Origin: Gemmatimonadota bacterium
Lineage (GTDB): Bacteria; Gemmatimonadota; Gemmatimonadetes; Longimicrobiales; RSA9
Direction: 5' to 3'
DNA: 64,000 nt
Assembly: GCA_017881445.1 (NCBI GenBank)
Contig: JADGQX010000002.1
Location: 610 to 64,609, forward strand
Shown: one piece after another, positions 32,175-58,894 of the stretch
How the letters are laid out: the number at the start of each line of letters is the position of its first letter
Numbering within the stretch: the stretch's first letter is position 1
Notes under the pieces: generated by a model
The model's database searches: none
The model's input: the letters and a program-made list of their open reading frames with translations, nothing else
Told to the model about the DNA's origin: nothing
Made by a program: the position numbers and the translations under genes

Positions 32175-33248
32175 GTGCTGCAGATCCGATCGGGCAGCTT
32201 GGCGGTTGTCCCGCTACTGCTGGCGCTGGCGGTGCCCGCCACGGCACAGCAGCCCAAGGGCGCGGTGAGCAGCAGCATAGCCGCCCGGCGACCGGTGTTC
32301 GGTGGGGCGTGCAAGCTCTGTCCGTGGGGGGCGCTGGGGGAGGTGGTGCGCCAGGCCATGCAGCCTTATGGCTACGAGGTACGGATCTGCCACAACTGCA
32401 GTGGTAGCAATGCCCCGCTGATCGTGGCGGACCGGCGTGAGCCGCCCCCGTACCGCCCGGACCCGAACGTGTCCGAGCTGCTCGCCCCCCAAAACGAGCC
32501 CGGGCTCGGCTCCATCGACTTCGGAGCCACCGCCGTGCAGTTCATAGTGGGGGCCTACCGCGGCACGGGCCCGTACGCGCGGGAACAGCCCCGCAAGAAC
32601 CTGCGGTTGATCGCGAACATCCAGTCGCCGAACTACCTGGTCGTTGCGGCCCGCGCCGAGACCGGCATCACGGACCTCTCACAGGTGCGCGCGAAGCGCT
32701 GGCCGGTCAAGGTCTTGTCGGGCGGCAGCGGCGTCGGGCTGAACGATTCGATCCTGGCGTACTTCGGAATTCCTCGGGACAGCATCCTGGCATCGGGCGG
32801 CCGGATCGGTGCGGACCGCGCCGACCGCCAGGACTTCGACATCATCATCCATTCCTGCCAGGGCCTCACCAGCGCGCCGGAGTTCGATGTGTGGACGGAC
32901 GTGAGCCAGCGCTTCCGCCTGAACTACATCCAGTTGCCCGACGAGCTGCTCGCGAAGATCGCGGCCGATGACTACTACGACCAGGCGCTCATCCCCGTGG
33001 GGCTCATGCCGGGCATCGAGCGCCCGATCAAGGCCGTGGTCCGCACTGGAACGGTGGTCTACACCACGGCGGCCGTGCCCGACGAGTTCGCGTACGCCGT
33101 CGCCAAGGCGCTCGACGAGCAGCAACAGATGCTGCAGTGGAGCCAGCTGAACTTCTCGTACAACAGCCACAACGTCTGGAAGGCATTCGAGGTGCCGCTG
33201 CATCCCGGCGCCGAGCGCTACTACCGGGAGCGCGGTTACCTCAAATGA
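32175..33248 (+). CDS. TAXI-family (TRAP-associated, NMT1_3-like) periplasmic solute-binding protein, orphan
   Basis: AGGAG lies 6 nt before GTG 32175, with signal peptide LAVVPLLLALAVPATAQQ. The C-terminal signature PLHPGAERYYRERGYLK is typical of TAXI receptors. No TRAP membrane component lies in the window. Confidence 0.65.
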   Translation: MLQIRSGSLAVVPLLLALAVPATAQQPKGAVSSSIAARRPVFGGACKLCPWGALGEVVRQAMQPYGYEVRICHNCSGSNAPLIVADRREPPPYRPDPNVSELLAPQNEPGLGSIDFGATAVQFIVGAYRGTGPYAREQPRKNLRLIANIQSPNYLVVAARAETGITDLSQVRAKRWPVKVLSGGSGVGLNDSILAYFGIPRDSILASGGRIGADRADRQDFDIIIHSCQGLTSAPEFDVWTDVSQRFRLNYIQLPDELLAKIAADDYYDQALIPVGLMPGIERPIKAVVRTGTVVYTTAAVPDEFAYAVAKALDEQQQMLQWSQLNFSYNSHNVWKAFEVPLHPGAERYYRERGYLK

Positions 33249-33337
33249 CGACTGTGCATGTATCCACGTGGGCAGGGCACCGAAAGATCACGGCGGCGCG
33301 ACCGCCGACACGTACCATCCACCACGGTGAGAGACCG

Positions 33338-34564: not shown

Positions 34565-34647
34565 GGTGGAGAGTATCGTGCCCGGTCCGGTAGGAAAGGC
34601 GAATCGAGTTCGCACGACCTGCCGTGGCCGGGTAGAAGCTGAAGTAG

Positions 34648-36504
<1,857 letters not shown>

Positions 36505-36610
36505 GGATTCAGGGGCGGGCCGTCGGTCCGGGCGCCAGTCGGGGGCCGACGGCCTCGCTCCACGCATTCACTCACTTGGGGACAACACCACTCGCAGGAG
36601 GGGATTCCTC

Positions 36611-38953
36611 ATGAAGGGGTACATCAGCCGGTACGCCGTACGCTTGTTCCCGGCGCTGCTCGCCTGTGCCGCAGGCGCTGCTCCCGTTCGGGCCCAGAAC
36701 AGCCCCGTGCAGCTGGGGCAACTCGCGAATCAGGGCCGGGTTACGTTCACCCGCGGCGCAGCCGGCTGGGGCATCCGCATCGATGAGCCCGGGCGCGCGT
36801 CCATGTACCAGGCCCGCCCGCTCCAGCTCCGCACGGCCACCGATTCGGCGCCCGGCCCGGAGCTGGCCGCCGGATACGGCTCCGTCAGCAAGGACGGGAA
36901 CGCCGTGGTGGGCCGCGGCCAGCTGGCACCGGTGTCAGGCGTCACCATCCAGTTCGTGGACCGCTGGAGCATTGCCGGCCCGGTACTCAACTTCGAGCGC
37001 GCGGTCTCGGTGCACGGCTCCGCCGCAGGCGGGTTCAACTCGGTCATTGCCCTTTCCACCGTCAAGGGCTTTACCTTCTCCGAGCTGGACCTGTTCTTCC
37101 CGGGCATGCTTTACAGCGGCGAGCCCGAGCACATCGACCTGCGCGGGGCGGCGGGCCTGACCAACTTCATGGCCGGCCGCATCCAGGACCGCGAGGACAA
37201 CTTCACCATGCCGATCTTCGGCTTCTCCTTCCGGGATGGCCGCTCGATCGCGGTGCTCGACCCCTCGCCGGACGGCAGCACCGTCATGGCGGACACGCGA
37301 GCTGCTCCACAACGCTTTGCCCGAGATGTTCAGCAAGCGCCCCGGCCCGCGGCCGTCATCGAGGCGCGGATGCGTCTGGGCGGGATGGGCGCGTTTCAGA
37401 ACGCGGACGGGGGCGTGGACGTCGCCTACTGGTACCCGGGCAGCATTCCTTCCGCACCGAGGTACCACCCCTATCGCGACGGCCTCACCCAGAGCTATCG
37501 CCTGAAGTACCGCTTCGGCGAGGGCGAGACCTTCCATGACTTCTACCGGAACGCCTGGCGCTGGGGCTGGAACTTGTATGCGCCGAAGCCGGACTACTAC
37601 GATCTGGCGGTGATCCAACGCACGCTGGCGGACCACCTCACTTCGCTGATCGAGACCCGCCCGGAGTGGTCGGGCCTGCCCTTCATGCGCTCGACCATAG
37701 ACGGCAAGGTCAGGGTCGAGTCATCTCCGGTCGGCTGCCATACGGCGCCGCAGTACTGCAACGAGAAGCCGGGCGAGTACCGCTGGTCGCGCGCCATCAT
37801 GGGGTTCGTGGGCAAGAACCTGGAGTCCGCGTCCGAGATCCTGTACGACTCGTACGCGGACTCGAGCGCGCGCGGCGAGGATCACCGCCAGAAGGCGACC
37901 CGGGTGATCGACAGCTTCGTGAAGAAGGTCAAGGTGGATCCGCCCAACGGCTCCGGCTTCAACGTGGAGACCGGCGAGCCGTCCGTGACGAATCCCGAGG
38001 GCAATCACGTCACCTGTTGCAGCGGCCGGGTCTACCTGCGCGAATTCGCCGAAGACATGCGCTGGGTGCTGTGGGCCTACGAGTGGGAGAAAGCACGGGG
38101 CCGCGTGCACGCCGACTGGCTCGACTGGATGACGCGCTTCGGCAACTGGGCGCTGACGCAGCAGGCACCCGATGGCTCGTTCCCGCGCTCCTGGTATCCG
38201 GTGACCGGCGTGGTGCGAGACTCGTCCACCACCTCCGGCTACTTCGTGATGAACTTCTTCACCAAGCTGAGCCAGGTGACCGGGGATCCGAAGTACCTGG
38301 AATCCGCGAAGCGGGCGGGCGATTACGTGTGGCTCAACTTCAACCGCAACGACCACTACATTGGCGGCCCCATCGACCAGGTCAACGGCTTGAACAAGGA
38401 AGCGGCCACGCTGTGTCTGGAGGGCTACCTCGCGCTGTACGAGGCGACGCACGACCAGAAGTGGCTGCGCCACGCCCAGGGCGCTGCCGACTTCGCCGAG
38501 ACGTGGGTCTATGACTGGAACATACCCATGCCCGCGGACGAGAGCGCGGACTCCCTGACCTGGAAGCCGGGCGTGCCCACGCTCGGCGTGAACCGCGTCA
38601 CCGCCGGAGGCGGCGCGGACCAGTGGATGGCGGCCGACGTGGACGAGTACGCCAGGCTCTCGAAGCACACGGGTGACCGGCACTACATGGACGTCGCCCG
38701 CGTGCTGCTGTACGGCACCAAGGCCATGCTCGCGCTGCCCGGCCGCACCTACGACATGCTGGGCCCGGGCTGGCAGCAGGAGCACTGGAGCATGAGCCTC
38801 AACCGCGGGCACGCGAATCACCGCAACGAGTTCCCGTGGGTGCCGGCCAACCACATGAACGGATTGCTCAGCCTGAAGATCTTCGACCCGTCGTTATACG
38901 AGGAGCTGGCTCGCAAGCCGGTCGCGAGCCAGCCGGCCAGCGGGCGGCACTGA
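36611..38953 (+). CDS. unassigned secreted protein family, member A1 (predicted N-terminal beta-rich region plus C-terminal helical-repeat region)
   Basis: The gene is 780 aa with signal MKGYISRYAVRLFPALLACAAGAAPVRAQ. It shares blocks with 42719, 49419 and 53559: MGFVGKNLESA, DGSFPRSW, IGGPIDQVNGLNKEAATLCLEGYLALYEATHDQKWL, ADFAETW, NIPMPAD, PGWQQEHW and WVPANH. I recognise no named family. Confidence 0.85.
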   Translation: MKGYISRYAVRLFPALLACAAGAAPVRAQNSPVQLGQLANQGRVTFTRGAAGWGIRIDEPGRASMYQARPLQLRTATDSAPGPELAAGYGSVSKDGNAVVGRGQLAPVSGVTIQFVDRWSIAGPVLNFERAVSVHGSAAGGFNSVIALSTVKGFTFSELDLFFPGMLYSGEPEHIDLRGAAGLTNFMAGRIQDREDNFTMPIFGFSFRDGRSIAVLDPSPDGSTVMADTRAAPQRFARDVQQAPRPAAVIEARMRLGGMGAFQNADGGVDVAYWYPGSIPSAPRYHPYRDGLTQSYRLKYRFGEGETFHDFYRNAWRWGWNLYAPKPDYYDLAVIQRTLADHLTSLIETRPEWSGLPFMRSTIDGKVRVESSPVGCHTAPQYCNEKPGEYRWSRAIMGFVGKNLESASEILYDSYADSSARGEDHRQKATRVIDSFVKKVKVDPPNGSGFNVETGEPSVTNPEGNHVTCCSGRVYLREFAEDMRWVLWAYEWEKARGRVHADWLDWMTRFGNWALTQQAPDGSFPRSWYPVTGVVRDSSTTSGYFVMNFFTKLSQVTGDPKYLESAKRAGDYVWLNFNRNDHYIGGPIDQVNGLNKEAATLCLEGYLALYEATHDQKWLRHAQGAADFAETWVYDWNIPMPADESADSLTWKPGVPTLGVNRVTAGGGADQWMAADVDEYARLSKHTGDRHYMDVARVLLYGTKAMLALPGRTYDMLGPGWQQEHWSMSLNRGHANHRNEFPWVPANHMNGLLSLKIFDPSLYEELARKPVASQPASGRH

Positions 38954-38967
38954 GAGGTGGAAGGATG

Positions 38968-38993
38968 GGGGAGCGGCCGAGGCCGCTCCCCCA
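38968..38993 (+). terminator. GC-rich palindromic hairpin (element copy 1)
   Basis: GGGGGAGCGGCC-GA-GGCCGCTCCCCC starts 15 nt after the stop at 38953. Confidence 0.55.
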
Positions 38994-39043
38994 TTGCCCC
39001 TTCGGATTGAGCACGGCACGACACTGACGAATCGGTCTACTGA

Positions 39044-40504
39044 ATGAGGAATCGGCCAATGAATACAGCAGCGTTTCATTACCGTAATCCTGATCAATCA
39101 TCTCAGAAACTATCCGTTCTCGAGAAGATCGGCTTCGGCAGCGGCGACGCAGCGGTGAACGTCGTGTGGTCGGCATTGGCGATCATCATCACCTTCTTCT
39201 ACACCGACGTGTACAGATTGAGGGTTGAGCACATCGCGATGCTGGGGCTCCTTCCCCGGTTGATCGATGCATTCGCCGATGTCCTGATGGGCATGTTCAC
39301 GGACAGCCACAGCTCACGCTGGGGCCGATATCGGCCGTACTTTCTGTTCCTGTCCGTTCCATTCGGCATCGCGGTCATGCTCGTGTTCACCACGCCGGAT
39401 CTCTCCTACAACGGCAAGCTGATCTGGGCCTACGCGACCTACATTCTGATGATGCTGGTCTTCACCGCCATCGTCATTCCCTACATCTCCCTGCCTGGCG
39501 TACTGACGGCCGACTCGAAAGAGCGTCTGTCAGCCAACGGGTACCGCCTGTTCTTCGCTAAGGGCGCCTCATTGGTGGTTAACATCTTCGTGCCGATGTT
39601 TGCAGCGAGCTACGCGGCAAAGTGGGGCGCTGCGCAGCTCCCGAAGGGCTACCAGATCGCGATGGCGACGATGGCTGTGATGGCCACGCTGCTGTTCATC
39701 TTCTGTTTCTTCACGACGACCGAACGTGTAACCCTCAAGAGCGATCGAAAGCCGATTGGGGAGCAACTGAGCTTGCTCTTCCGCAACTCTCAGTGGCTCA
39801 TCCTGGCCGGCGTGTGCATTCTCAGCACGCTTGGCTATGTACTTCGCGGATCCGTCGGCTTCTACTACGCCAAGTACTTCCTCCGTGGTGACGCCGCGCT
39901 CCTGTCCGCCTTCATCACCGTCGGTATCATCGGCAACATCCTTTCCATGGTCGCTTCCACGTGGATCACGAAGAAGTACTGCAAGATACAGCTCTTTCGC
40001 TGGTGCCAGATCGTCACCTTCGGATTGAGCGTCCTCATGTTCCTGGTCGTAAAACCGGGGCTTGATGACAGGGTCATGGCCTTCGTTCTGTACTTCATCA
40101 TCAACTTCGTTGTGGACCTCCAGGGGCCAGTGTTCTGGTCCATCATCTCGGAAGCCGTGGACTACGGGCAGGTAAAGAGCGGCAAGCGCGTGACGGGCCT
40201 GGCTTTCGGTGGCATCTCCTGGTGTCAGAAGATGGGCATGAGCCTCGCCGCCGGCATGGCGGGATGGATTCTCACCTACTACAGCTATGTGGCGGACAAA
40301 GCATACAATCCGGCAGTCCCGCAGGATATGTTCACGCTGCGCGGCATCGCACTGATGCTCACGATCATTCCGGGCATCTTCCACCTGGCCACTGGTCTCC
40401 TGATGTATGGATACTTCATCACGGACAAGTACTACGCAGAGAACATCAAGGACAGACTGGCCGTCCTGCAGGGAGCGGAGACGCCGCTGGAGCCCGTCGT
40501 CTAG
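39044..40504 (+). CDS. GPH-family (MelB/XynP-like) glycoside-pentoside-hexuronide:cation symporter
   Basis: LSVLEKIGFGSGDAAVNVVWSALAIIITFFYTDV and FTDSHSSRWGRYRPYFLF (an RxGRRRP-like motif) are present, with about 12 hydrophobic spans. GC is visibly lower than in flanking genes. Confidence 0.85.
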   Translation: MRNRPMNTAAFHYRNPDQSSQKLSVLEKIGFGSGDAAVNVVWSALAIIITFFYTDVYRLRVEHIAMLGLLPRLIDAFADVLMGMFTDSHSSRWGRYRPYFLFLSVPFGIAVMLVFTTPDLSYNGKLIWAYATYILMMLVFTAIVIPYISLPGVLTADSKERLSANGYRLFFAKGASLVVNIFVPMFAASYAAKWGAAQLPKGYQIAMATMAVMATLLFIFCFFTTTERVTLKSDRKPIGEQLSLLFRNSQWLILAGVCILSTLGYVLRGSVGFYYAKYFLRGDAALLSAFITVGIIGNILSMVASTWITKKYCKIQLFRWCQIVTFGLSVLMFLVVKPGLDDRVMAFVLYFIINFVVDLQGPVFWSIISEAVDYGQVKSGKRVTGLAFGGISWCQKMGMSLAAGMAGWILTYYSYVADKAYNPAVPQDMFTLRGIALMLTIIPGIFHLATGLLMYGYFITDKYYAENIKDRLAVLQGAETPLEPVV

Positions 40505-40538
40505 CAACGGTTTCAGCCCAGTACTTTTGAGGCTTATC

Positions 40539-42473
40539 ATGGAAAAAGCGCAACCCGCGCTCAGACTGAGCATCGCCGCCGACAAACCGGGCGCGCGGAT
40601 CAGCCCGGCCATGTGGGGGATCTTCTTCGAGGACATCAATTTCGGAGCGGACGGCGGACTCTGCGCGGAGCTGGTGAAGAACCGGTCGTTTGAATTCCCG
40701 GAGCCATTGATGGGCTGGTCGAAGATCAGCCCGAGCCATGCCCGCGGCCAGCTGTCCATTCAGCATGACGGCCCGTTTGCCCCGGCGAATCCGAACTACC
40801 TGCGCATCGAGTCGCGGGCGACAGCGCCGTTTGGCGTCGCCAACGAAGGCTTCCGCGGCATGGGTGTACGGCAGGGCGAGGCGTATCACTTCTCGGCGCA
40901 CATCCGCAACGTCTCCGGGTCACCGTCAGTGCGCGTTGCCCTGTATTCCGCGCAGGGCCACCTGCTGGATTCGGTCCAACTGCAGGGATTCTCTTCGGAC
41001 TGGAAGAAGTGCACGGCTGTTCTGAATCCTCAGAGCACCGATGCCAAGGCCAGGTTGTATGTTCTGGTGGACGGTGAAGGCGTTGTGGACGTCGACCTGG
41101 TGTCGCTGTTTCCGGAGCATACCTGGAGGAATCGAATCGGCGGGCTCCGCGCCGACATGGTGCAGCTTCTCGCCGATCTGAAGCCCGGCTTCCTCCGTTT
41201 CCCCGGCGGCTGCATCGTCGAAGGCAGCGTGCTCGACTACCGTTACCAGTGGAAGAATACCGTTGGCCCGGTAGAGGATCGGAAGCTCGTCATCAACCGC
41301 TGGAATTACGAGTTCCTGCATCGGCCGGCGCCCGACTATTACCAGTCCTTTGCGCTGGGCTTCTTCGAGTTTTTCCAGCTCTGTGAAGACATCGGCGCGC
41401 AGCCGCTGCCGATTGTCAACTGCGGCATGGCATGCCAGTTCAACTCCTGTGAGCTGGTCCCCCTGGACCAGCTGGGGTCCTACGTCCAGGACGCCTTGGA
41501 TCTGATCGAATTCGCCGATGGTCCGGCGGACAGCACCTGGGGCAAGCTCCGGGCGCAGATGGGCCATCCCGAGCCGTTCAACATGAACATGATCGGCGTG
41601 GGCAATGAGCAGTGGGGGCCGCAGTATGTCGAGCGATACAACGTCTTCGCCGCCGCCATCAAGGCGAAGCATCCTGAGATGAAGCTCGTTGCGGCCACGG
41701 GCTCGGATGCCACCATTTTCCCCAACGGAAAGGCGGAGATTGAATACCTCTGGTCCGAGTGGCGGGCCCTCGAGCCGGAAATCGTGGACGAGCACTTCTA
41801 CCGGTATCCGGAGTGGTTCGCGGAGAATGCGAACCTGTACGATTCGTACGACCGCAACGGCCCCAGATTGCTGGTGGGCGAATACGCCGCTCAGAGCGTA
41901 GGGGTGGCCAGCCCGGACAACAGGAACAACTGGAAGACCGCCCTGTCAGAGGCGGCCTTCATGACGGGACTGGAGCGCAACGCCGATCTGGTAGTCATGA
42001 GCTGCTACGCGCCCCTGTTTGGCCACAAAGAAGCCTGGCAGTGGACGCCCAACCTGATCTGGTGCGACAACCTCTGCGTTTACGGTACCCCGAATTACTA
42101 CGTGCAGAAGGCATTCAGCACCAATCGCGGCGATGTGATTCTGCCCGTCCACCTGAGCGGTGGAGAAGCCGATTCGCAGCCCTCGTGCTTCGCCTCTGCC
42201 ACGCGCGATGAAGCAGCTGGAGAAATCATCGTGAAGGTGGTGAATACCGGGGCTGAGCGAATCACCGCCGGGCTTACGATCAACGGTGCAAGTCAGCTCA
42301 AGTCGACGGGGTTGGCCATGACCCTCAGCGGAGAGCTGGCGGCTGAAAACTCACTTGAGGAGCCCAGGAAGATTGCGCCGGTTTCTGCAACGGTCGCCGG
42401 CGTGAAACCGGAGTTCACGTACACCTTCGAGCCCTACTCCTTGACGGTGCTCAGGCTGGGCGAAAGAGCCTAG
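40539..42473 (+). CDS. GH51 alpha-L-arabinofuranosidase without a signal peptide (cytoplasmic)
   Basis: Blocks are ISPAMWGIFFEDINFGADGGLCAELVKNRSFE, FLRFPGGCIVEG, IGVGNEQWG, and LVGEYAA with the C-terminal beta-sandwich. The start MEKAQPALRL has no signal. The gene lies directly downstream of the GPH symporter. Confidence 0.9.
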   Translation: MEKAQPALRLSIAADKPGARISPAMWGIFFEDINFGADGGLCAELVKNRSFEFPEPLMGWSKISPSHARGQLSIQHDGPFAPANPNYLRIESRATAPFGVANEGFRGMGVRQGEAYHFSAHIRNVSGSPSVRVALYSAQGHLLDSVQLQGFSSDWKKCTAVLNPQSTDAKARLYVLVDGEGVVDVDLVSLFPEHTWRNRIGGLRADMVQLLADLKPGFLRFPGGCIVEGSVLDYRYQWKNTVGPVEDRKLVINRWNYEFLHRPAPDYYQSFALGFFEFFQLCEDIGAQPLPIVNCGMACQFNSCELVPLDQLGSYVQDALDLIEFADGPADSTWGKLRAQMGHPEPFNMNMIGVGNEQWGPQYVERYNVFAAAIKAKHPEMKLVAATGSDATIFPNGKAEIEYLWSEWRALEPEIVDEHFYRYPEWFAENANLYDSYDRNGPRLLVGEYAAQSVGVASPDNRNNWKTALSEAAFMTGLERNADLVVMSCYAPLFGHKEAWQWTPNLIWCDNLCVYGTPNYYVQKAFSTNRGDVILPVHLSGGEADSQPSCFASATRDEAAGEIIVKVVNTGAERITAGLTINGASQLKSTGLAMTLSGELAAENSLEEPRKIAPVSATVAGVKPEFTYTFEPYSLTVLRLGERA

Positions 42474-42509
42474 GATCTGGCGGCTCGCTGGCAATGGCGT
42501 CTCGGCAGT

Positions 42510-42536
42510 GGGGGAGCGGTCCTCGACCGCTCCCCC
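42510..42536 (+). terminator. GC-rich palindromic hairpin (element copy 2, inverted orientation)
   Basis: GGGGGAGCGGTC-CTC-GACCGCTCCCCC starts 37 nt after the GH51 stop. Its flanks (CACCCTTCAGCTCTCAATGG) are the reverse complement of the flank TGAGAGGTGGAAGGATG seen in copies 1 and 3. Confidence 0.55.
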
Positions 42537-42718
42537 ACCCTTCAGCTCTCAATGGCGAGCGGATGATCGCGGTGATGCAGTTCGCACTTTCTGGCGCGCT
42601 TTCGGATCAGCCGTGGCTTTCGAAGTGGACCTGCCGTAAGCACATTCAGTCTGGCGCTACCGCTGGCGGAACAAGACCGACCTGGGACGTGCAGCAACAC
42701 AGACAAGGGGGATTCCTC

Positions 42719-45028
42719 ATGAAGGGGTACATCAGCCGGTACGCCGTACGCTTGCTCCCGGCGCTGCTCGCCTGTGCCGCAGGCGCTGCTCCCGCACGGG
42801 CTCAGAACAGCCCCGTGCAGCTGGGGCAACTCGCGAATCAGGGCCGGGTTACGTTCACCCGCGGCGCAGCCGGCTGGGGCATCCGCATCGATGAGCCCGG
42901 CCGCGCGTCCATGTACCAGGCCCGCCCGCTCCAGCTCCGCACGGCCACCGATTCGGTAGCCCGCCCGGAGCTGGCCGCCGGATACAGCTCCGTCAGCAAG
43001 GTCGGGAACGCGGTGGTAGGCCGCGGCCAGCTGGCACCGGTGTCCGGCGTCACCGTCCAGTTCGTGGACCGCTGGAGCATTGCCGGGCCCGTCCTCAATT
43101 TCGAGCGCGCGGTCTCGGTGCACGGCTCCGCGGCAGGCGGTTTCAATTCGGTCATTGCCCTGTCCACCGTCGAACGCTTCACCTTCTCCGAGCTGGACCT
43201 GTTCTTCCCGGGCATGATCTACAGCGGTGAGCCCGAGCACATCGCGCTGCGCGCGCCGGCGGGGCTGACCAACTTCATGGCCGGGCACATCGAGGAGCGC
43301 GAGGACGGCTTCACCATGCCGATCTTCGGCTTCTCGTTCCGCGACGGCCGCTCGATCGCGGTGCTGGATCCAGCGCCCGACGGCAGCACGGTCGTGGCGG
43401 ACACGCGGGCGACCCGCGGCGCGACCGTGATCGAGGAGCGGATGCATCTAGGCGGGATGGGCGCCTTCCAGAACGCGGATGGGGGCGTGGACGTCGCCTA
43501 TTGGTACCCGGGCAGCATTCCTTCCGCACTGAGGTACCACCCCTATCGCGACGGTCTTACCCAGAGCTATCGCCTGAAGTACCGCTTCGGTGCGGGCGAG
43601 ACCTTCCACGACTTCTTCCGGAACGCCTGGCGCTGGGGCTGGAACATCTATGCGCCGAAGCCGGACTACTACGATCTCGCGGTGATCCAGCGCACGCTGG
43701 CGGACCACCTCACTTCGCTGATCGAGACCCGCCCGGAGTGGTCGGCGCTGCCGTTCATGCGCTCGACCATAGACGGCAAGGTCAGGGTCGAGTCCTCTCC
43801 GGTCGGCTGCCATACGCCGGTGCAGTACTGCAACGAAAAGCCGGGCGAGTACCGCTGGTCGCGCGCCATCATGGGGTTCGTGGGCAAGAACCTGGAGTCC
43901 GCATCCGAGATCCTGTACGACTCGTACGCGGACTCGAGCGCGCGCGGCGAGGAGCACCGCCAGAAGGCCACCCGGGTGATCGACAGCTTCGTGAAGAAGG
44001 TCAAAGTGGATCCGCCCAACGGCTCGGGCTTCAACGTCGAGACGGGCGAGCCATCCGTGACCAATCCCGAGGGCAATCACATCACCTGTTGCAGCGGCCG
44101 GGTCTACCTGCGCGAGTTCGCCGAAGACATGCGCTGGGTGCTGTGGGCGTACGAGTGGGAGAAGGCGAGAGGCCGGGTGCACGCGGACTGGCTCGACTGG
44201 ATGACCCGCTTCGGCAACTGGGCGCTGACGCAGCAGGGAGCCGATGGCTCGTTCCCGCGCTCCTGGTACCCGGTGACCGGCGTGGTGCGGGATTCGTCCA
44301 CCACCTCCGGCTACTTCGTGATCAACTTCTTCACGAAGCTGAGTCAGGTCACCGGTGACCCGAAGTACCTGGAATCCGCCAAGCGGGCGGGCGATTACGT
44401 GTGGCTCAACTTCCAGCGCAACGACCACTTCATTGGCGGGCCGATCGACAACGCGAACGGTATGGACAAGGAAGCGTCCACGCTATCGCTCGAGGGCTAC
44501 CTCGCGCTGTACGAGGCGACGCACGACCAGAAGTGGCTGCGCCACGCCCAGGGCGCTGCGGACTTCGCCGAGACGTGGGTGTACGACTGGAACGTGCCCA
44601 TGCCCGCGGACGAGAGCCCCGACTCCCTGACCTGGAAGCCAGGCGTGCCCACGCTGGGCGTGAACCGCATCGGCGCCGGGGGTGCGGGAGTGGACCAGTG
44701 GATGGCGGCCGACGTGGACGAGTACGCCAGGCTATCGAAGCACACGGGTGACCGGCACTATATGGACGTCGCCCGCGTGCTGCTGTACGGCACCAAGGCC
44801 ATGCTCGCGTTGCCCGGCCGCACCTATGACATGCTGGGGCCCGGATGGCAGCAGGAGCACTGGAGCATGAGCCTCAACCGCGGGCACGCGAATCACCGCA
44901 ACGAGTTCCCGTGGATACCGGCCAACCACATGAACGGGTTGCTCAGCCTGAAGATCTTTGACCCGTCGTTGTACGAGGAGCTGGCTCGCAAGCCGGTCGC
45001 GAGTCAGCCGGCCAGCGGGCGGCACTGA
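42719..45028 (+). CDS. unassigned secreted protein family, member A2 (recent duplicate of A1)
   Basis: The gene is 769 aa and collinear with A1, with mostly identical residues. It lacks the 11-aa segment AAPQRFARDVQQAPRPA found in A1 (TRATRGATVIEERMHLGG versus TRAAPQRFARDVQQAPRPAAVIEARMRLGG). Confidence 0.85.
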   Translation: MKGYISRYAVRLLPALLACAAGAAPARAQNSPVQLGQLANQGRVTFTRGAAGWGIRIDEPGRASMYQARPLQLRTATDSVARPELAAGYSSVSKVGNAVVGRGQLAPVSGVTVQFVDRWSIAGPVLNFERAVSVHGSAAGGFNSVIALSTVERFTFSELDLFFPGMIYSGEPEHIALRAPAGLTNFMAGHIEEREDGFTMPIFGFSFRDGRSIAVLDPAPDGSTVVADTRATRGATVIEERMHLGGMGAFQNADGGVDVAYWYPGSIPSALRYHPYRDGLTQSYRLKYRFGAGETFHDFFRNAWRWGWNIYAPKPDYYDLAVIQRTLADHLTSLIETRPEWSALPFMRSTIDGKVRVESSPVGCHTPVQYCNEKPGEYRWSRAIMGFVGKNLESASEILYDSYADSSARGEEHRQKATRVIDSFVKKVKVDPPNGSGFNVETGEPSVTNPEGNHITCCSGRVYLREFAEDMRWVLWAYEWEKARGRVHADWLDWMTRFGNWALTQQGADGSFPRSWYPVTGVVRDSSTTSGYFVINFFTKLSQVTGDPKYLESAKRAGDYVWLNFQRNDHFIGGPIDNANGMDKEASTLSLEGYLALYEATHDQKWLRHAQGAADFAETWVYDWNVPMPADESPDSLTWKPGVPTLGVNRIGAGGAGVDQWMAADVDEYARLSKHTGDRHYMDVARVLLYGTKAMLALPGRTYDMLGPGWQQEHWSMSLNRGHANHRNEFPWIPANHMNGLLSLKIFDPSLYEELARKPVASQPASGRH

Positions 45029-45041
45029 GAGGTGGAAGGTT

Positions 45042-45067
45042 GGGGGGGCGGTCGAGGCCGCTCCCCC
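45042..45067. terminator. GC-rich hairpin (element copy 3, one mismatch), between convergent genes
   Basis: GGGGGGCGGTCGAGGCCGCTCCCCC starts 14 nt after the stop at 45028. The opposite-strand gene ends at 45176. Confidence 0.45.
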
Positions 45068-45175
45068 GCTGCCGTGACGCCATTGCCAGCCAGACCTGCA
45101 CCGATGGCGGAGCGCCGACCCTGCCGTCCGGGAAGGCCGGGAAGCTCGTGCTTTGCTGCTCAACCCTCAATGTTC

Positions 45176-49418: not shown

Positions 49419-51848
49419 ATGCCGGAGAGCCATCCGGTGTCGAAAGCTCCGTGGATCTGCTCGCTCGCCGTGCTGTCCGTGCTGACGCAGCTATCCTGCG
49501 CCCATGGCCCTCCCGGTGCGGTCGGCCCCAATCGCGTTGGGGCGAACCCCGCCGGAGTGGTGCAAGGCACCGCGGCTCCCACCCTCAGGGCCGTTCGCAA
49601 CAGCTCGGGTGAGTGGGGGATCGAACTGGCCGGCGTGGAAACGGCAAGACTGATGCAGGCCCAGCCGGCGCAGCTCGAGCTTTATTCGCCGGACGGGCAG
49701 ATCCGGCAGTTCGCGGCGGGCTACGATGCCGTGCAGCAGGCCGCGGGAGAAGTCGCGGGGAAGGCCGTGATCGACGCGGGAGGCGGTGCGAGCATCACCG
49801 TAGCCGACCATTGGGCCCTCGAGGACGGTGTGGTCACCCTCGACCGTACCGTTGCCGTAACCGGCACGCGGCCGGGCGCAGGATTCTCTTCCGCCATTCG
49901 CCTGTATACGGTGCCCGAGCTCACCTGGCCCGACGTCAGCTTCCTGGCCCCTGGCCTGCTCTACGGCGATCCCACCTACAACGGGCCGCGCTCGCCCGGC
50001 GGAACCCTGTACGATGCGGACCGGCAGTTCACCATCCGTGAGGACTTTCTGCCGGCGCCGCTGTTCGGTGTGGCCCTGCGTAATGGCGAAACGTTCACGC
50101 TGCTGGACATGGCGCCGCAGGGACACAGCACCCTGGGAGAGACCCGCACCGGCCTGAATCCCGGAGTGCTGATCGATGAGCGACTCTCTTTCGGCGGACT
50201 GGGCGCCAGGGAAGCGGCTAACGGCGGCGTCGAAATCGGTTTCTGGCTGCCGGGTAGTACACGGGTGTTGCCGCGGCCCCAGTTCGGCGGGCCCGGTGGC
50301 GGGGCACCAGCTGGCGGGCGCCCGGCCGGGGCGCCTCCTGCCGGCCCACCCGCCGCTGGCGCACCCCGAGCAGGCGCGGCCGCTGCCGGCGGGGCGCAGG
50401 CCTCAGAGCCTACGCAATTCGAGTGGTCGCGCCGATACAACCCGGTGCAGGCAGGCTTTCGGCAGCATTACCGGATCGGTTTCCGCTTTGCTGCCGGTGA
50501 GTCCTTCCCGGATCTGACGCGCGACGCGTATCGCTGGGCCTGGGCGGTTCTGAAGCCGCAGCTGAACTGGCACGACATGGAGGTGGTGCGGCGCAGTCTG
50601 ACGGACCAGCTCTCGAGCCAGGTCTACACCATCGACGGTCGTACCGGCCTGCCGTTCATCGTCTACACCCATTCCGGCGAAGTCTGGCGCCGCGACGGCG
50701 ATCCGGACTTCTACTGGCGGGCCACCATGGGCTTCGTCGGCAAGAACATCGAGGCGGCCGACCAGTTGCTGCGTGAAGCGGAGCGCGATCACGGCCCGCG
50801 CGGGCAGAAGCTGCGGCAGCAGGGCTTGGACGTGATCAGCACCTTCATTCGACTGGTGCCGATGAACCCGCCCACCAGCACGGGCTTTAATCTCCGGAAC
50901 GGCGGTCCGTCCATGACCAACCCGCCCGTCTGGTACGTGCGGGAGGCGACGGAGGACATGCGGATGCTGATGGAAGCCTACCGGCGCGAGCGGGCGGCGG
51001 GTCGCGAGCATCCCGAGTGGATCAGGTGGTGCCAGGACTTTGCCGATTGGCTGATCAAGCTGCAGCGTGCGGACGGCTCCTTCCCACGCTCCTTCATGAT
51101 CAACACCAGCGAGATCCGGGAGGAATCAGGCACCACCAGTTACAACGTGGTGCCGCTCTTCGTGATGCTCAGCCAGGATCGGCACGATGACCGGTACTTC
51201 GATGCTGCGGTCCGGGCGGCCGAGTACGTGTGGCGCAGCTTCGGCACGCGCGGTGTGTTCATCGGCGGAGCGATCGACAATCCCAATATCACGGACAAGG
51301 AGGCCGGTCTGCTGTCCATGGAGGCCTTCCTCTTCCTGTACGAACGGACGAAGCAGCCGAAGTGGCTGCACCGGGCACAGGTGGCGGGTGACTTTGCCGA
51401 GAGCTGGATGTGGCTCTGGAACAACCCGATGCCCGATGATGCCAACGACGATTCGCTGATGTGGAAGCGGAGCGTGCCGACCGTCGGGGTGCAGGGCATC
51501 ACTGCGCAAGTGGCCGGGCACGTAGACCAGTACCTGGACTGGTCGGTGCCGGCCTACGCGAAGCTATACCGCTACACCGGCGACGGGCACTACCGCGAGC
51601 TGGCCCGGATCCTCTTGCACAACACCAAGGGGATGATGGCCATGCCCGGCCGCCTGCACGGCATGATCGCGCCCGGGTGGCAGACGGAGAACTGGCGCAT
51701 GGGCGCGGCCCGCGAGGGGCGAGGCTTCGGCACGCCGGAGAAGTGGATGCCCTGGGTGACCACCAATCACCTGTACAGCATCACCGGCCTGGAGCAGTTC
51801 GATCCGGAGCTGTTCGCGGAACTGAGTGCCCGACCCCGGGGCAACTGA
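49419..51848 (+). CDS. unassigned secreted protein family, member B
   Basis: GGAGG lies 5 nt before the ATG, and the gene is 809 aa. Blocks are MGFVGKNIEAA, DGSFPRSF, IGGAIDNPNITDKEAGLLSMEAFLFLYERTKQPKWL, GDFAESW, NNPMPDD, VDQYLDW, PGWQTENW and WVTTNH. A Gly/Pro/Ala low-complexity insert lies at 50281..50410. Confidence 0.85.
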   Translation: MPESHPVSKAPWICSLAVLSVLTQLSCAHGPPGAVGPNRVGANPAGVVQGTAAPTLRAVRNSSGEWGIELAGVETARLMQAQPAQLELYSPDGQIRQFAAGYDAVQQAAGEVAGKAVIDAGGGASITVADHWALEDGVVTLDRTVAVTGTRPGAGFSSAIRLYTVPELTWPDVSFLAPGLLYGDPTYNGPRSPGGTLYDADRQFTIREDFLPAPLFGVALRNGETFTLLDMAPQGHSTLGETRTGLNPGVLIDERLSFGGLGAREAANGGVEIGFWLPGSTRVLPRPQFGGPGGGAPAGGRPAGAPPAGPPAAGAPRAGAAAAGGAQASEPTQFEWSRRYNPVQAGFRQHYRIGFRFAAGESFPDLTRDAYRWAWAVLKPQLNWHDMEVVRRSLTDQLSSQVYTIDGRTGLPFIVYTHSGEVWRRDGDPDFYWRATMGFVGKNIEAADQLLREAERDHGPRGQKLRQQGLDVISTFIRLVPMNPPTSTGFNLRNGGPSMTNPPVWYVREATEDMRMLMEAYRRERAAGREHPEWIRWCQDFADWLIKLQRADGSFPRSFMINTSEIREESGTTSYNVVPLFVMLSQDRHDDRYFDAAVRAAEYVWRSFGTRGVFIGGAIDNPNITDKEAGLLSMEAFLFLYERTKQPKWLHRAQVAGDFAESWMWLWNNPMPDDANDDSLMWKRSVPTVGVQGITAQVAGHVDQYLDWSVPAYAKLYRYTGDGHYRELARILLHNTKGMMAMPGRLHGMIAPGWQTENWRMGAAREGRGFGTPEKWMPWVTTNHLYSITGLEQFDPELFAELSARPRGN

Positions 51849-53558: not shown

Positions 53559-55811
53559 ATGGGTAAGACCAGAATGCAGCTTCGTCGCGCGCTACCGGTA
53601 GCCGCGATCGTGCTGTGCGCGGCTGCCGGGCCGGTGCCGTCCAGGGCGCCCGAGGAGATTCTCGTCGGACAACTCGACCGCGGCGGCCGGGTGCTGCTGG
53701 TCGGCTCCGATGCCGAGGGTTGGGGCATCCGGGTCGAAGCGCCGGGGATCGCGTCGGTCACGCAGCGCGAGCCCGTGCGCGCGAAGGCCTACCGGAGCGA
53801 AACGGACGTGACCGATCTCACCGCCCGGTATCGTTCGATCCGCCGGTCCGGCGACGGCTACCTCTGCGTCGGCGAGCTGTCTCCGGTGGACGGGGTGGTG
53901 CTGCGGTTCGAGGACACCTGGTCCGTTGCCGGTACGGCGCTCAACCTGTCCCGCACGGTGCGGGTGGCGGGGGCCTCGCACGGCGGCTTCTTCTCGGCTG
54001 TGACCTTCGCCACCGACGCGCCGCTGCTGTTTCCCGACGTGGACCACTTCGCGCCGGGGATGATCTACGGCGGCCCGCAGTACCTGACCGACAACGCGCC
54101 CGCTGGGATGCCGTCGTTCCGGGCCGGCACGTTCCAGGTGCGCGAAGACGGCTTTCCCCTCCCCGTGTATGGCCTGCACTTCAAGGATGGAACGTCGGTG
54201 GCGGTCCTGGATCGGCGGCCCGATGGGGGCACGACGGCGGCCGACTCCCGCGACGTGCGGGGCATCACGATGATCGACGAGCGTTTCCGGTTCGGGGCCC
54301 TGGGCGCGCACGAGACCGCGGACCAGAGAATCGAACTGGGCTACTGGTTTCCGGGGTCGATGGAGCCGCCCCCGCTCCTCTCCGCCGCTTCCCTGCGCAA
54401 TCAGCCGAGCGGCCGGCGGTTCCACCCCTTCCGGGACGGTCTCACCCAGCACTACGAGCTGGCGTTCCGGTTCGGCCGCGACGAATCGTTCCACGATTTC
54501 TACCGGAACAGCTGGCGTTGGGGATGGAACACCCTGAGCCCCGAGCTCCAGCATTACGACATGGCCATGATGCAGCGGATCCTGGCCGACCAGTTGACCA
54601 GCACCATACGCACGGTCGGGGGCCGCACCGGACTGCCGTTCTGGTACTACTCGACCACGGGTGAGCTCGGCGACCAGCTCTGGTTCATGAACGCCATCAT
54701 GGGCTTCGTCGGAAAGAACATCGAGGGCGCCGCGCTGCTGCTACAGGAGGCCGAGGGAGACAACAGCCCGCGGGGCCGGAGGCAGCGGCAGCTCGCGTTG
54801 AACATCCTGGACACGTTCGTGCGCGAGGTGAAGGTGTCGCCTCCCAGCGGCGAGGGGTTCAACCTGGACACGGGCGAACCGGCGGTCACGCGAGCGGACC
54901 TGTTCCTGGCCGTCCACCTGCGCGCGCTCACGGATGACATGCGGTGGGCGGTCAAGGCATACCAGCGGGAGCTGGCCCACGGGCGCGCGCACCCGAACTG
55001 GCTCCTTTGGTGCCGCCAGTTCGGCGAATGGCTGCTCGGCCAGCAGCGGCCCGACGGCAGCTTCCCACGTTCCTGGCAGCTCGGGACCGGGCAGGTGTTC
55101 AACGAGTCCAGCACGTCGAGCTACAACGCGATGGCCTTCCTGGTGACGCTGAAGCAAGTGACCGGGCAGGAGCGGTTTCTCACCGCGGCTGAGCGGGCGG
55201 GCGAGTACTCCTGGATGACCTATCATTCCCACGACGCGTTCGTCGGCGGGACGCTGGACAATCCGAACATCCTCGACAAGGAAGCTGCCACGCTGTCGCT
55301 GGAGGGCTACCTGGCGCTGTACGAGGACACGCACGATCCGCGCTGGCTGCGCCGGGCGAGGGTAGCGGCGGACTTCGCCGAAACCTGGATCTACGCCTGG
55401 AACCTGCCCATGCCGGTGGACGAGGACGATGCGGTCCTCCGGTGGAAGCGCGGAGCCAATACCATCGGGGTCAGCAAGATCAACAGCACGGGGTTCTCCG
55501 TGGACCAGTGGATGGCCGGCGACGCCGACGAGTACGCCCGGCTCTACGATCACACCAAAGACCCGCACTACCTGACCATTGCTCGCATCCTGATGCACAA
55601 CACCAAGAGCATGGTGGCCATCCCGGGGCGCATCTACGACCTGCACGGTCCTGGCTGGCAGCAGGAGGGCTGGAGTATGGTGCGACAGCGGGGGGTCGCC
55701 GGGCAGATCGGCTGGCTGCCGTGGGTCACCGTAAACCACCTCACCGGGATCCTCGCGCTCGAGGAGTACAGCATGGATCTGTATCGGCAGGTGGCGGACG
55801 GACGGAACTAG
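53559..55811 (+). CDS. unassigned secreted protein family, member C
   Basis: The gene is 750 aa. Blocks are MGFVGKNIEGA, DGSFPRSW, VGGTLDNPNILDKEAATLSLEGYLALYEDTHDPRWL, ADFAETW, NLPMPVDED, VDQWMAGD, PGWQQEGW and WVTVNH. It is the last gene of the B-GH43-C operon. Confidence 0.85.
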   Translation: MGKTRMQLRRALPVAAIVLCAAAGPVPSRAPEEILVGQLDRGGRVLLVGSDAEGWGIRVEAPGIASVTQREPVRAKAYRSETDVTDLTARYRSIRRSGDGYLCVGELSPVDGVVLRFEDTWSVAGTALNLSRTVRVAGASHGGFFSAVTFATDAPLLFPDVDHFAPGMIYGGPQYLTDNAPAGMPSFRAGTFQVREDGFPLPVYGLHFKDGTSVAVLDRRPDGGTTAADSRDVRGITMIDERFRFGALGAHETADQRIELGYWFPGSMEPPPLLSAASLRNQPSGRRFHPFRDGLTQHYELAFRFGRDESFHDFYRNSWRWGWNTLSPELQHYDMAMMQRILADQLTSTIRTVGGRTGLPFWYYSTTGELGDQLWFMNAIMGFVGKNIEGAALLLQEAEGDNSPRGRRQRQLALNILDTFVREVKVSPPSGEGFNLDTGEPAVTRADLFLAVHLRALTDDMRWAVKAYQRELAHGRAHPNWLLWCRQFGEWLLGQQRPDGSFPRSWQLGTGQVFNESSTSSYNAMAFLVTLKQVTGQERFLTAAERAGEYSWMTYHSHDAFVGGTLDNPNILDKEAATLSLEGYLALYEDTHDPRWLRRARVAADFAETWIYAWNLPMPVDEDDAVLRWKRGANTIGVSKINSTGFSVDQWMAGDADEYARLYDHTKDPHYLTIARILMHNTKSMVAIPGRIYDLHGPGWQQEGWSMVRQRGVAGQIGWLPWVTVNHLTGILALEEYSMDLYRQVADGRN

Positions 55812-56692: not shown

Positions 56693-56707
56693 AATCGGCT
56701 GCAGTCC

Positions 56708-58840
56708 TCACCCCTCGAAATCTTTCCAGTCGGGCCAGTTCATCAGCGTGGTGAACCGGTGGGCAGCGGGCCAGGCGACCAGCCATTCGCGGGCATCTCC
56801 ATAGAGCCGCTTCCCATCCGCCGTGACCAGCCTGAGGCTGTAAGCTTCCGATTGGCTGCCAAGGGGACGTTTGACACCGTGGACAACCATGGTTCCATCC
56901 GAGATTCCATGGGTACCCTGGTTCCAGCACTGGATCGCGCGGTCCCGCCAGATGTCCTTTCCTGTCATCTTGGCCAGACGCAGCCACGCCCATGCCCACA
57001 AAGATCCCCAGGGATCCTGGCCCTGAGCCATCACGGTAATGCCGGTGCCTCCGAACCAGTCGTAGTTCATCTTCAGCAGGGGGCTGTCGGGATGCATTGG
57101 CGGCGCGTAGTGCCATTGCCAGCTCGCCAGGTAATAGGCGGCCAGCTCGAGGGCTTTCAGATACTCCTTCGAGCCGGTCAGCTCGTACAGGTCCATGGCC
57201 GCGAACAGCATTGGCACACCGGCCTCGCGGTCGATCGTATCGCCATCGATCGCCCCGCTGGTGCAGATGAAGTGGTCGAGATCGCGCTCCAGGTAAGCCT
57301 TGAACGCCCGCTTCGCCGCCTCCAGGTATTTCGCCTCGCGCGTGATCCTGTATGCCTTCAGCATGGGCATGAGCATGAACGCGCCGGTGGTGAAACCCGG
57401 CTGGAGGCACTCGCCCTCGAGCGACCACGCCTTGCCGAAGGTGCCATCGGGCAGAGCGTGCGTGACGAAGAAATCGCAGGCATCCAGGGGCATCTTCCGC
57501 CAGAGCGGCTTTTGTATGCCGATCTTCTCGGCCAGCTCAGAGGCCACCAGGTAGTTATAGGCGCCGAAGCCGAGATTCACGCAGTCCAGAAAATGCTCGT
57601 CCGGCTTGGCCTCCCTTCCCAGATAGGTTGCATTGTGGGACCCCCACGGAGAGATACCCAGCTTGATGCCCCACTCCGTGAGGAACAGGCCACTGGGCAG
57701 GCGTCCGTTCTCTGCCCAGAAATCCAATGACCGTTCGCCTTTGGTGAGCGAGTCCTGGTTCTTGTTCCAGATGTAGTCCTGGAGCATGACCACGCCCCAC
57801 TCGGCGTTCTGGTTGCACCATCCAATGTCAAAGGAGCCGAAAGCAGAGAACACCGGGAACTTCTGAAACCCATCCGGGCCCGGGGTCGCGTCGAACTTGG
57901 CCGCGCTCATCCCGAAGCAGAACCCGGTGAACTTCACCTTCGCGTCATCGTTGTCGTACCACAGCGACTCCTTGGCAAACCGGGTTCCGAGCTCCCAGAG
58001 ACGCTTGGGAGGGAAGGACGGCTTCACATCGTGGCGATTCAGGCGCCAGGCGTGGTCCATCCCGGCGCTGAAGGACCGCCGCTTCTGCGTGGCGGGCGCG
58101 AGGACGACGTACGCCGTCACCGAAAACTCCTCGCCCGCGGCTACGGCAAGCTCTTCCTTGAGGGCGGCGGCGCCGGTCCGGAGGTTGTCTCGTTCTGGCC
58201 AGAGCAGGCGGTGCGCGAGCTTGCGGTCCCGCTCCTCGAGCGAGAAAGCGCAGAACAGGGACTTACGCTCCACGGACGTGAAGACGAAGATGGACCAATC
58301 CCCGCCTTCCGAGTAGTTGCCCGCCGGGATGTTGGAACGAAACGCGGAGTAAACCCACGGCTTCCCCTCCGACGACAGACCCTTGGGGGCCCTGCGTCCG
58401 TATTCGGGATTGCCGTTATAGCTGATGCCGGGAATCAGCGTGAATTCCGGGGAATAGCCCGACTCGATCTCCATGCACAGGTCGGCCTGGACGGTCCCGC
58501 TGGTGCGATTCTTCCAGCTTCGCTTCCATTCGTAGAAACCGGCCTGCAGTTGTTGAATCTGCTCGCGCACCTCCCACGGACCACTCCGAAATGTCCGAAT
58601 GGCTTTCGTGGGGCTCACAGCGGCGAAGTTGACGTTATCCACGGCGCTTTCGCCGCCCTGCGCGACCGCGGGAATGTGAGCTATCGTCGTAGAGCCGCTG
58701 ACAAATCGCAAATCCGTGCCGACCTTTTCGATGCGAATGCCGGAAGCGGCAGCAAGTGCCAGCGGGTCCAGCAAGGCCGCCATGGCGGCGGAGATCACTA
58801 CCTCCCCGAATTCCCGTCTGGTCATCTGGGTCATGGTCAT
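56708..58840 (-). CDS. distant fifth member of the unassigned family, Tat-signal protein
   Basis: The N-terminus MTMTQMTRREFGEVVISAAMAALL has a twin-arginine motif. LPDGTFGKAW, GAIDGDTIDREAGVPMLFAAMDLYELTGSKEYLKALELAAYYLASWQWHY and GSQSEAY parallel DGSFPRSW, GGPID..N..KEAATL.LEGYLALYE.T....WL..A...ADFAETW and PGWQQEHW in the four paralogues. The start could be any of three ATGs between 58840 and 58825. Confidence 0.75.
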   Translation of the reverse strand: MTMTQMTRREFGEVVISAAMAALLDPLALAAASGIRIEKVGTDLRFVSGSTTIAHIPAVAQGGESAVDNVNFAAVSPTKAIRTFRSGPWEVREQIQQLQAGFYEWKRSWKNRTSGTVQADLCMEIESGYSPEFTLIPGISYNGNPEYGRRAPKGLSSEGKPWVYSAFRSNIPAGNYSEGGDWSIFVFTSVERKSLFCAFSLEERDRKLAHRLLWPERDNLRTGAAALKEELAVAAGEEFSVTAYVVLAPATQKRRSFSAGMDHAWRLNRHDVKPSFPPKRLWELGTRFAKESLWYDNDDAKVKFTGFCFGMSAAKFDATPGPDGFQKFPVFSAFGSFDIGWCNQNAEWGVVMLQDYIWNKNQDSLTKGERSLDFWAENGRLPSGLFLTEWGIKLGISPWGSHNATYLGREAKPDEHFLDCVNLGFGAYNYLVASELAEKIGIQKPLWRKMPLDACDFFVTHALPDGTFGKAWSLEGECLQPGFTTGAFMLMPMLKAYRITREAKYLEAAKRAFKAYLERDLDHFICTSGAIDGDTIDREAGVPMLFAAMDLYELTGSKEYLKALELAAYYLASWQWHYAPPMHPDSPLLKMNYDWFGGTGITVMAQGQDPWGSLWAWAWLRLAKMTGKDIWRDRAIQCWNQGTHGISDGTMVVHGVKRPLGSQSEAYSLRLVTADGKRLYGDAREWLVAWPAAHRFTTLMNWPDWKDFEG

Positions 58841-58894
58841 CTCAAGTGAAGTGACGCGTGCATTATCCCCAGGAGAGCCGGGGCGCACCTGCCC

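Follow-up and report, generated by a model that had tools for sequence, protein, structure and literature searches.

How did two closely similar genes come to stand on either side of a sugar transporter gene and a glycosidase gene, and what has kept them alike? We examined this question in a stretch of 64,000 nucleotides (nt) from the Gemmatimonadota contig JADGQX010000002.1 (this whole stretch is referred to as the window), in which genes A and B lie as direct repeats around a cassette of two genes, a symporter and a GH51-type alpha-L-arabinofuranosidase. An earlier note on this DNA had taken the layout for a recent segmental duplication bracketing imported genes. We favor a different reading, to which we give a probability of roughly 0.7: A and B are an old paralog pair in conserved order, kept alike by gene conversion, and flank a symporter-GH51 unit within an arabinose-glycan locus. 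The repeats, the genes in them and the two genes between them are listed here.

36598..38993, + strand: repeat copy 1, with ribosome-binding site, gene A and hairpin (pairwise alignment breakpoints)

36611..38953, + strand: gene A, 780 amino acids, the 'long-loop' (L) isoform (coordinates and tblastn; AlphaFold 2 model with a predicted local distance difference test score, pLDDT, of 83.9)

37300..37335, + strand: 36-nt (12-codon) segment present in A only, a disordered surface loop (A residues 232-243; alignment, pLDDT < 50)

39044..40504, + strand: GPH (glycoside-pentoside-hexuronide):cation symporter, MFS_2 (PF13347, E = 7e-104, profile positions 1-427 of 427)

40545..42473, + strand: GH51-type alpha-L-arabinofuranosidase (ASD1_dom, PF22848, E = 2.7e-58, 197.8 bits; Alpha-L-AF_C, PF06964, E = 2.2e-33, 116.2 bits)

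42706..45068, + strand: repeat copy 2, with ribosome-binding site, gene B and hairpin (pairwise alignment)

42719..45028, + strand: gene B, 769 amino acids, paralog of A, the 'short-loop' (S) isoform (tblastn, alignments)

Alignment of the copies by blastn matched 36583-38998 to 42692-45073 in direct orientation with 91.3% identity over 2419 columns, 171 mismatches and 4 gap openings. In a global alignment, similarity begins at 36598/42706, 13 nt 5′ of the ATG and inclusive of the GGGG ribosome-binding motif, and ends at about 38993/45068, directly past a 14-bp GC hairpin; outside both edges the copies show unrelated sequence. The coding sequences share 92.9% of nucleotides and 93.4% of amino acids (91.8% by tblastn), and Nei-Gojobori estimates amount to 0.215 synonymous substitutions per synonymous site (dS) and 0.035 nonsynonymous substitutions per nonsynonymous site (dN). 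Because dN/dS is 0.16, we conclude that both genes are under purifying selection. The longest identical run between A and B is 98 nt (P = 0.10 under uniform spacing), and synonymous differences counted per 100-codon bin showed no significant heterogeneity (chi-square of about 11, 7 degrees of freedom). The difference in length between the genes combines a 36-nt gap (A 37300-37335, missing in B) with a separate 3-nt insertion in B (~44684-44686), for a net of 33 nt. The earlier note was thus correct in describing direct repeats, in running the identity from about 12 nt upstream of the ATG through the hairpin, and in placing the indel in a hypervariable loop, as the length difference falls on a loop (A residues 232-243) that is modeled with pLDDT below 50 and varies in length among homologs, with long and short forms also occurring in relatives; its description of the DNA as near-identical does not survive the alignment, however, and its single 33-nt indel proved to be two. 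The right-hand junctions of both copies are reproduced in independent assemblies (L-numbers denote contigs, and P-numbers homologous proteins). L079 and L080 match 38935-41228 and 38724-40726 at 100% identity, thereby reproducing the right junction of A, and L076 and L072, 99.4-99.8% identical to the region downstream of B, do the same for the right junction of B. Several contigs of this type end within the repeat, as expected for a collapsed duplicate.

The age of the arrangement follows from a comparison with close homologs of A and B, which we took from metagenomes. Two contigs from one sample (JGI 3300037878), L027 and L028, meet in an exact 17-nt overlap inside the symporter gene. L027 encodes BNR/CBM35, BD-FAE, GH43, GH5-like and esterase genes, then the copy A1 (P0001) and the 5′ part of the symporter, and L028 encodes the 3′ part of the symporter, GH51 and the copy B1 (P0002), which yields a combined order of esterase, copy, symporter, GH51 and copy, as in the window. 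Spacers are orthologous upstream of A and A1 and likewise upstream of B and B1, establishing positional orthology for both pairs. Single-copy genes of the window differ from those of L027/L028 by a dS of 0.20-0.29 upstream of the repeat, 0.307 in the 3′ part of the symporter and 0.505 in GH51. As the order is shared with a relative at a single-copy dS of 0.20-0.51, the duplication predates that split, and this synteny shows that the four-gene order is older than the divergence from at least one related lineage. Together with the dS of 0.215 between the copies, it contradicts the claim that the duplication is recent.

Two further observations concern the same contigs. The stretch 38995-40050, comprising the A-symporter spacer and the 5′ two-thirds of the symporter, differs from L027/L028 by only about 2.7%, compared with 10-18% in its flanks; it contains 235 identical nt (39141-39375), has a dS of 0.088 in the 5′ part of the symporter, and has its left edge at the end of the A/B repeat. 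These properties suggest that the lineages recently recombined here or that the metagenome contig is chimeric. Separately, L027 and L032 are without the window segments 32197-33255 and 34612-35151, which correspond to an NMT1_3-like gene (32142-33248) and to the N-terminal part of the esterase gene (34651-36504); as the region is otherwise collinear, these are lineage-specific insertions or deletions.

Other ARRANGEMENTS in relatives include L025/L026 (ENA ERZ25039483 contig_4275), with an S-type and then an L-type copy, no cassette between them and an unrelated neighborhood, and L029, which also has a cassette-less tandem pair. The contig that encodes P0008 reads TerC, GH51 and an S-type copy, without a symporter, and distant members of the family also occur in tandem pairs (L038, L043). 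The cassette-less pairs on L025 and L029 sit in unrelated neighborhoods and are not alleles of this locus; nor are they deletion derivatives of it, since recombination between A and B leaves one chimera and not an intact tandem pair. Some of these copies are broken: at 7000-7530 of L025, the upstream tandem copy P0005 is called at 704 amino acids because a frameshift cuts off its signal-peptide region, pointing to a sequencing error or to a gene on its way to becoming a pseudogene, and the S-type copy on the P0008 contig is split likewise, into 465 and 294 amino acids. A scan of representative-genome contigs gave a single near match of about 190 nt, in the Gemmatimonadetes metagenome-assembled genome (MAG) MnB_13. 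Two contigs of this MAG, L021 and L022, each start in the last ~190 nt of a homolog (87-89% nucleotide identity to A/B) and differ in their downstream flanks, suggesting that the assembly of MnB_13 likewise broke at similar copies, of which there would be two or more; the flanks are unrelated to the window and uninformative for synteny.

Despite the shared synteny with L027/L028, A is more similar to B than either gene is to its positional ortholog. Nucleotide identity is 92.9% for A-B, 86.7% for A-A1, 86.5% for B-B1 and 84.4% for A1-B1, and the corresponding dS values are 0.215, 0.41, 0.45 and 0.47. The N-terminal signal peptides and C-terminal tails are genome-specific, with A matching B in both and A1 matching B1 in the tail. 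Such a relation, in which paralogs within a species are more similar than orthologs between species, defines concerted evolution (PMC6053082), and A and B share with known cases both this relation and a mosaic signal along the gene. Amongst informative sites in the quartet A, B, A1 and B1, 63 group the copies by genome (A,B|A1,B1), 24 group them by position (A,A1|B,B1) and 16 follow the third pattern. The 24 position-grouping sites are clustered (P = 0.0005, runs test by permutation), and sites of this kind are also clustered when the independent pair P0003 and P0005, from the 292-kb contig L025, is used (P = 0.001). Two isoform-specific islands stand out in the quartet sites, the runs test and the segment trees.

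37100..37350, + strand: island 1, in which A groups with its positional orthologs and not with B

38340..38610, + strand: island 2, with IDQVNGLN versus IDNANGMD and NRVT versus NRIG

Neighbor-joining trees of the islands grouped A with A1 in 68% of bootstrap replicates, A with A1 and P0003 in 61%, and A with B in 1%; for the rest of the gene, the tree grouped A with B at 100% and A1 with B1 at 85%. Taken together, these comparisons show that A and B have repeatedly exchanged sequence by intragenomic recombination (gene conversion) since the lineages split.

The sites that group copies by position are of a particular kind. They are nonsynonymous in 21 of 24 cases in the first quartet and 23 of 29 in the second, while synonymous informative sites back the grouping by genome (25 vs 3 and 39 vs 6, respectively). 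Since the position-grouping sites are nearly all nonsynonymous, the isoform signal consists of amino-acid motifs together with the 12-residue loop. The L form carries RIQDRED, CHTAPQYC, IDQVNGLN and NRVT and the S form HIEERED, CHTPVQYC, IDNANGMD and NRI[GN], with both sets common to several genomes, a pattern which suggests that two isoforms are kept by selection against conversion. Whether L and S are functionally specialized isoforms of an unclassified enzyme family, with about 20-25 residues and the 12-residue loop kept distinct and the rest homogenized, is a bolder proposal that we regard as rather doubtful. If it is true, the isoform residues would be a natural map of specificity-determining positions in a new enzyme family, and the conversion-resistant residues of A and B, as candidate specificity determinants, offer a short list for enzymologists.

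On the reading we favor, conversion would be pervasive between A and B, with selection retaining the isoform-specific residues and the 12-residue loop, and the sharp edges of the repeat, from ribosome-binding site to hairpin, would mark the limits of the homology available for conversion and not the breakpoints of a fresh duplication. The classic bacterial example of concerted evolution between paralogs is tufA/tufB. Unlike that pair, A and B, 6.1 kb apart, are separated by two unrelated genes and would encode a secreted enzyme, not a housekeeping protein; unlike classic concerted evolution, a subset of amino-acid positions and the loop stay isoform-specific across genomes. As a process, the duplication is textbook material, a new instance of a well-known kind of event. 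Its wider lesson is that a sharp-edged, high-identity repeat in one genome can be an old paralog pair maintained by conversion; because gene conversion keeps old paralogs alike, identity alone misdates such repeats.

Several points weigh against this reading. The islands were delimited post hoc from the same informative sites, making the segment trees partly circular and leaving the runs test as the unbiased statistic. Within the islands, dS still favors A with B (A-B 0.33 vs A-A1 0.48), so the evidence for an old L/S split comes from amino-acid sites and the indel rather than from neutral sites. Taken alone, the A-B mismatches are not significantly clustered in their spacing (P = 0.10). L027 and L028 are metagenome contigs, and we infer from the 17-nt overlap that they come from one genome; likewise, we infer the enzymatic function of A and B throughout. 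Finally, cassette-less tandem pairs (L025, L029) and a symporter-less GH51-S pair (P0008 contig) also exist.

Amongst the alternatives, the one that survives best, although we consider it improbable, attributes the likeness of A and B and the mosaic mainly to homologous recombination with related strains, by allelic replacement or segment transfer, and not to intragenomic conversion. Divergence is indeed uneven along the locus (symporter 5′ part, dS 0.088 with 235 nt identical; GH51, 0.505; upstream genes, 0.20-0.29), from which it follows that inter-lineage exchange, or a chimeric contig, occurs here, and the isoform motifs are shared with genomes of different gene order. The import of alleles, however, would leave unexplained why A is like B at synonymous sites and in the genome-specific N- and C-terminal tails. 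This likeness needs copying between paralogs, and the non-island trees (A+B at 100%, A1+B1 at 85% bootstrap) likewise speak against strain exchange as the main source.

Considerably less probable still is the proposal of the earlier note that a recent segmental duplication surrounds a laterally imported, lower-GC symporter and GH51, as a composite, transposon-like or recombination-generated module. Its description of the contents and the layout was accurate: alignment and gene families confirm that direct repeats flank a unit for uptake and intracellular hydrolysis, and the interval holds one GPH/MFS_2 symporter, one GH51 and nothing else, with family matches above cut-off. The symporter scores 304.8 bits against a cut-off of 231.35 for TIGR00792, and its likely start is 39059, from which other assemblies call an identical 481-residue product. 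Both GH51 domain matches exceed their gathering scores, and by inspection the N-terminus of GH51 is without a hydrophobic signal region; lacking a signal peptide, the enzyme is presumably cytoplasmic. The composition of the cassette bore out the claim in part. Its GC content is 59.6% (0.556-0.628 in 500-nt windows, with a median of 0.60 per 60-nt line) and not the 40-55% that had been put forward, but the direction was right, as no other 3.7-kb stretch of the window, which averages 66.1%, with 67% in the copies, has a lower GC content. Both cassette genes have a third-position GC content (GC3) of 0.80 and a low synonymous-usage likelihood. This offers an import weak support, since a GC3 of 0.80 lies about one standard deviation (SD) below the window mean of 0.852 (SD 0.053), 9 of 33 genes do not exceed this value, and the deficit of the symporter falls mostly on codon positions 1 and 2 (0.52 and 0.40), as expected from membrane-protein composition.

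The sharp-edged direct repeats around both genes, the cassette-less tandem pairs in other genomes and a small inverted duplication of the terminator of B at the right edge of the cassette could also be read in favor of a recent import. Like a composite transposon or a cassette with direct repeats at its ends, the layout has a functional gene module surrounded by two long direct repeats, through which the module could in principle be lost or multiplied by homologous recombination. Unlike in a composite transposon, however, the repeats here are not insertion sequences; they encode enzymes of 770-780 amino acids with a beta-sandwich and an (alpha/alpha)6 domain, under purifying selection (dN/dS 0.16), in a vertically conserved arrangement. 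No transposase or integrase family was found amongst the genes scanned at 33-49 kb, and none, nor any tRNA, in the window. The edges of the cassette showed no target-site duplication or terminal inverted repeats, and no direct repeat pairs the two edges; one exact 14-nt direct-repeat pair joins 38999 to 40017, within the symporter, and the sole edge-associated repeat is the GC hairpin. The transposon-like module is thus not supported, and the conserved synteny with a relative diverged by a dS of 0.2-0.5 largely refutes a recent import, the dS of 0.215 between copies and the unrelated neighborhoods of the cassette-less pairs adding to the case. The suggestion that the repeats could recombine fared better, since the copies carry the signature of gene conversion. 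Deletion or amplification between them is physically possible because identical runs reach 98 nt; no such variants were seen in the few available contigs, and no presence/absence polymorphism at the locus was found in a small sample in which L027, L028, L032 and the same-strain L079 and L080 share the junctions.

Least credible of all is a scenario in which each lineage duplicated the gene on its own and the copies then diverged in parallel, at the amino-acid level, into L-like and S-like forms. It would suit the grouping of copies by genome at neutral sites and the recurrence of tandem duplications in distant genomes (L038, L043), but the position-specific flanks and gene order shared by the window and L027/L028 contradict it by requiring a common duplication. 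It would also need more than 20 identical replacements and a shared 12-residue loop deletion to arise in parallel, which is unlikely.

We turn next to the hairpins at and between the copies.

38965..38994, + strand: 14-bp GC-rich hairpin after A, a putative terminator or mRNA-stabilizing stem without a U-tract (inverted repeat; −40.5 kcal/mol, z = −5.2)

42484..42557, − strand: inverted copy of the stop codon of B, its hairpin and ~23 nt of downstream flank (91% over 57 nt vs 45020-45093; −49.6 kcal/mol)

45042..45067, + strand: GC-rich hairpin after B (repeat search, folding)

The inverted copy directly follows the stop codon of GH51, and B is therefore bracketed by inverted repeats. It is missing in the relative L028, where the spacer between GH51 and B1 measures 107 nt vs 245 nt here; a bidirectional terminator and an inversion substrate are possible roles for it. 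We rejected a dispersed element like the repetitive extragenic palindromic (REP) sequences or miniature inverted-repeat transposable elements (MITEs), because just three copies of the hairpin are present in the window, one each behind A, GH51 (inverted) and B. These three hairpins may separate three transcription units, with the symporter and GH51 forming a two-gene unit between A and B. A scan for canonical promoters and terminators gave nothing above shuffled expectation.

What A and B encode is, in our prediction, a pair of secreted carbohydrate-active enzymes of an uncharacterized family, with an N-terminal beta-sandwich and an (alpha/alpha)6 barrel. The signal peptide was recognized by inspection and by pLDDT below 50 over residues 1-29. 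A lipoprotein signal (LLAC) was considered and rejected on inspection, as its Cys is missing in the ortholog P0001, which makes an ordinary signal peptide more likely. Searches with A returned only sub-threshold Pfam matches (GH76, GH47, GH127 and GlcNAc 2-epimerase) and nothing meaningful amongst NCBIfam or PDB sequences, and exact-sequence look-ups of A, B and GH51 gave no match. The GH127 profile (PF07944) scored 18.5 and 17.3 bits against a cut-off of 24.9 and covered about 100 of its 376 positions. Weak partial matches to this profile recur in 20 of 23 family members, and A and B share with GH127 beta-L-arabinofuranosidases both these (alpha/alpha)6 matches and a gene context of arabinofuranoside degradation; unlike GH127, they score below the cut-off with partial coverage, and the Cys-Cys pair is not conserved across their family. 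A GH127-like zinc/nucleophile site at this Cys-Cys motif was rejected, the motif being present in close homologs and unconserved in the wider family.

Structural comparison of the A model with Foldseek gave as its best match the PL27 lyase BACCELL_00875 (5no8; E = 1.4e-10, template modeling (TM) score 0.41-0.46, 11% identity), followed by GH94, GH52, GH63, GH116 and GH76. This PL27 enzyme, an L-rhamnose-alpha-1,4-D-glucuronate lyase, has the same two-domain architecture as A (PMC8377490), and both are found in loci for arabinogalactan- or arabinose-type glycans. In contrast to this structural likeness, neither phmmer with A nor hmmsearch with the family profile found a PL27 chain amongst PDB sequences at E ≤ 10; judged from the predicted structure, the resemblance appears to lie at the level of the fold only.

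By profile search the family comprises 481 cluster representatives (50% identity) at E ≤ 1e-30 and 1171 at E ≤ 1e-10, and some members carry a fused CBM9, ricin-B or ConA-like module. GH54, GH43, GH51-like, GH9-like and esterase genes adjoin the members found in Acidobacteriota, Bacteroidota, Ignavibacteriales and a Steroidobacteraceae (Gammaproteobacteria) MAG. We regard the repeated gene as the more useful lead from this locus: its family is widespread, secreted and without a Pfam, NCBIfam or PDB assignment, and stands consistently among arabinofuranosidase genes. Five paralogs lie within the window, A, B and three more distant ones.

49419..51848, + strand: distant paralog of A/B, 35% amino-acid identity (tblastn)

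53559..55811, + strand: distant paralog of A/B, 46% amino-acid identity (tblastn)

56708..58888, − strand: distant paralog, 29% identity over the C-terminal barrel (tblastn)

Directly after the minus-strand paralog stands a stand-alone CBM9-like gene (55949-56707); in the homolog P0033, CBM9 is fused.

By its gene content, the window reads as a large arabinose-glycan utilization locus.

13880-18576: SusC/SusD pair

It also encodes seven GH43 genes, GH51 and GH51-like genes, a GH54, a GH9-like gene, several esterases, a CBM9 protein and a LacI regulator, with catabolic functions provided by an aldose 1-epimerase, an FGGY kinase, an AraD1/GguC-family protein and an enolase-superfamily enzyme. 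SusC/SusD, GH43/GH51/GH54, esterases, LacI, pentose catabolism and a cytoplasmic finishing step are shared with SusC/SusD polysaccharide utilization loci; unlike a typical locus of this type, the host has 66% GC and the window holds five paralogs of an unclassified enzyme family. In this setting A and B would act outside the cytoplasm to trim glycans that contain arabinose. The oligosaccharides they release would enter through the GPH symporter, and the cytoplasmic GH51 would then free L-arabinose, to be used by catabolic genes encoded elsewhere in the window.

Base composition varies along the locus. GC3 differs strongly between the two clear GH51 genes, with 0.95 for 172-1821 (− strand) vs 0.80 for 40545-42473 (+ strand), and genes in the right half (45-62 kb) tend to a lower GC3 (0.68-0.80) than genes in the left half, a difference that hints at a composite history of the whole locus. 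At 21747-22514 (− strand), an open reading frame of 255 amino acids has a C-terminal fragment match to a GntP permease and a weak, sub-threshold match to DUF4372, and may be a gene remnant.

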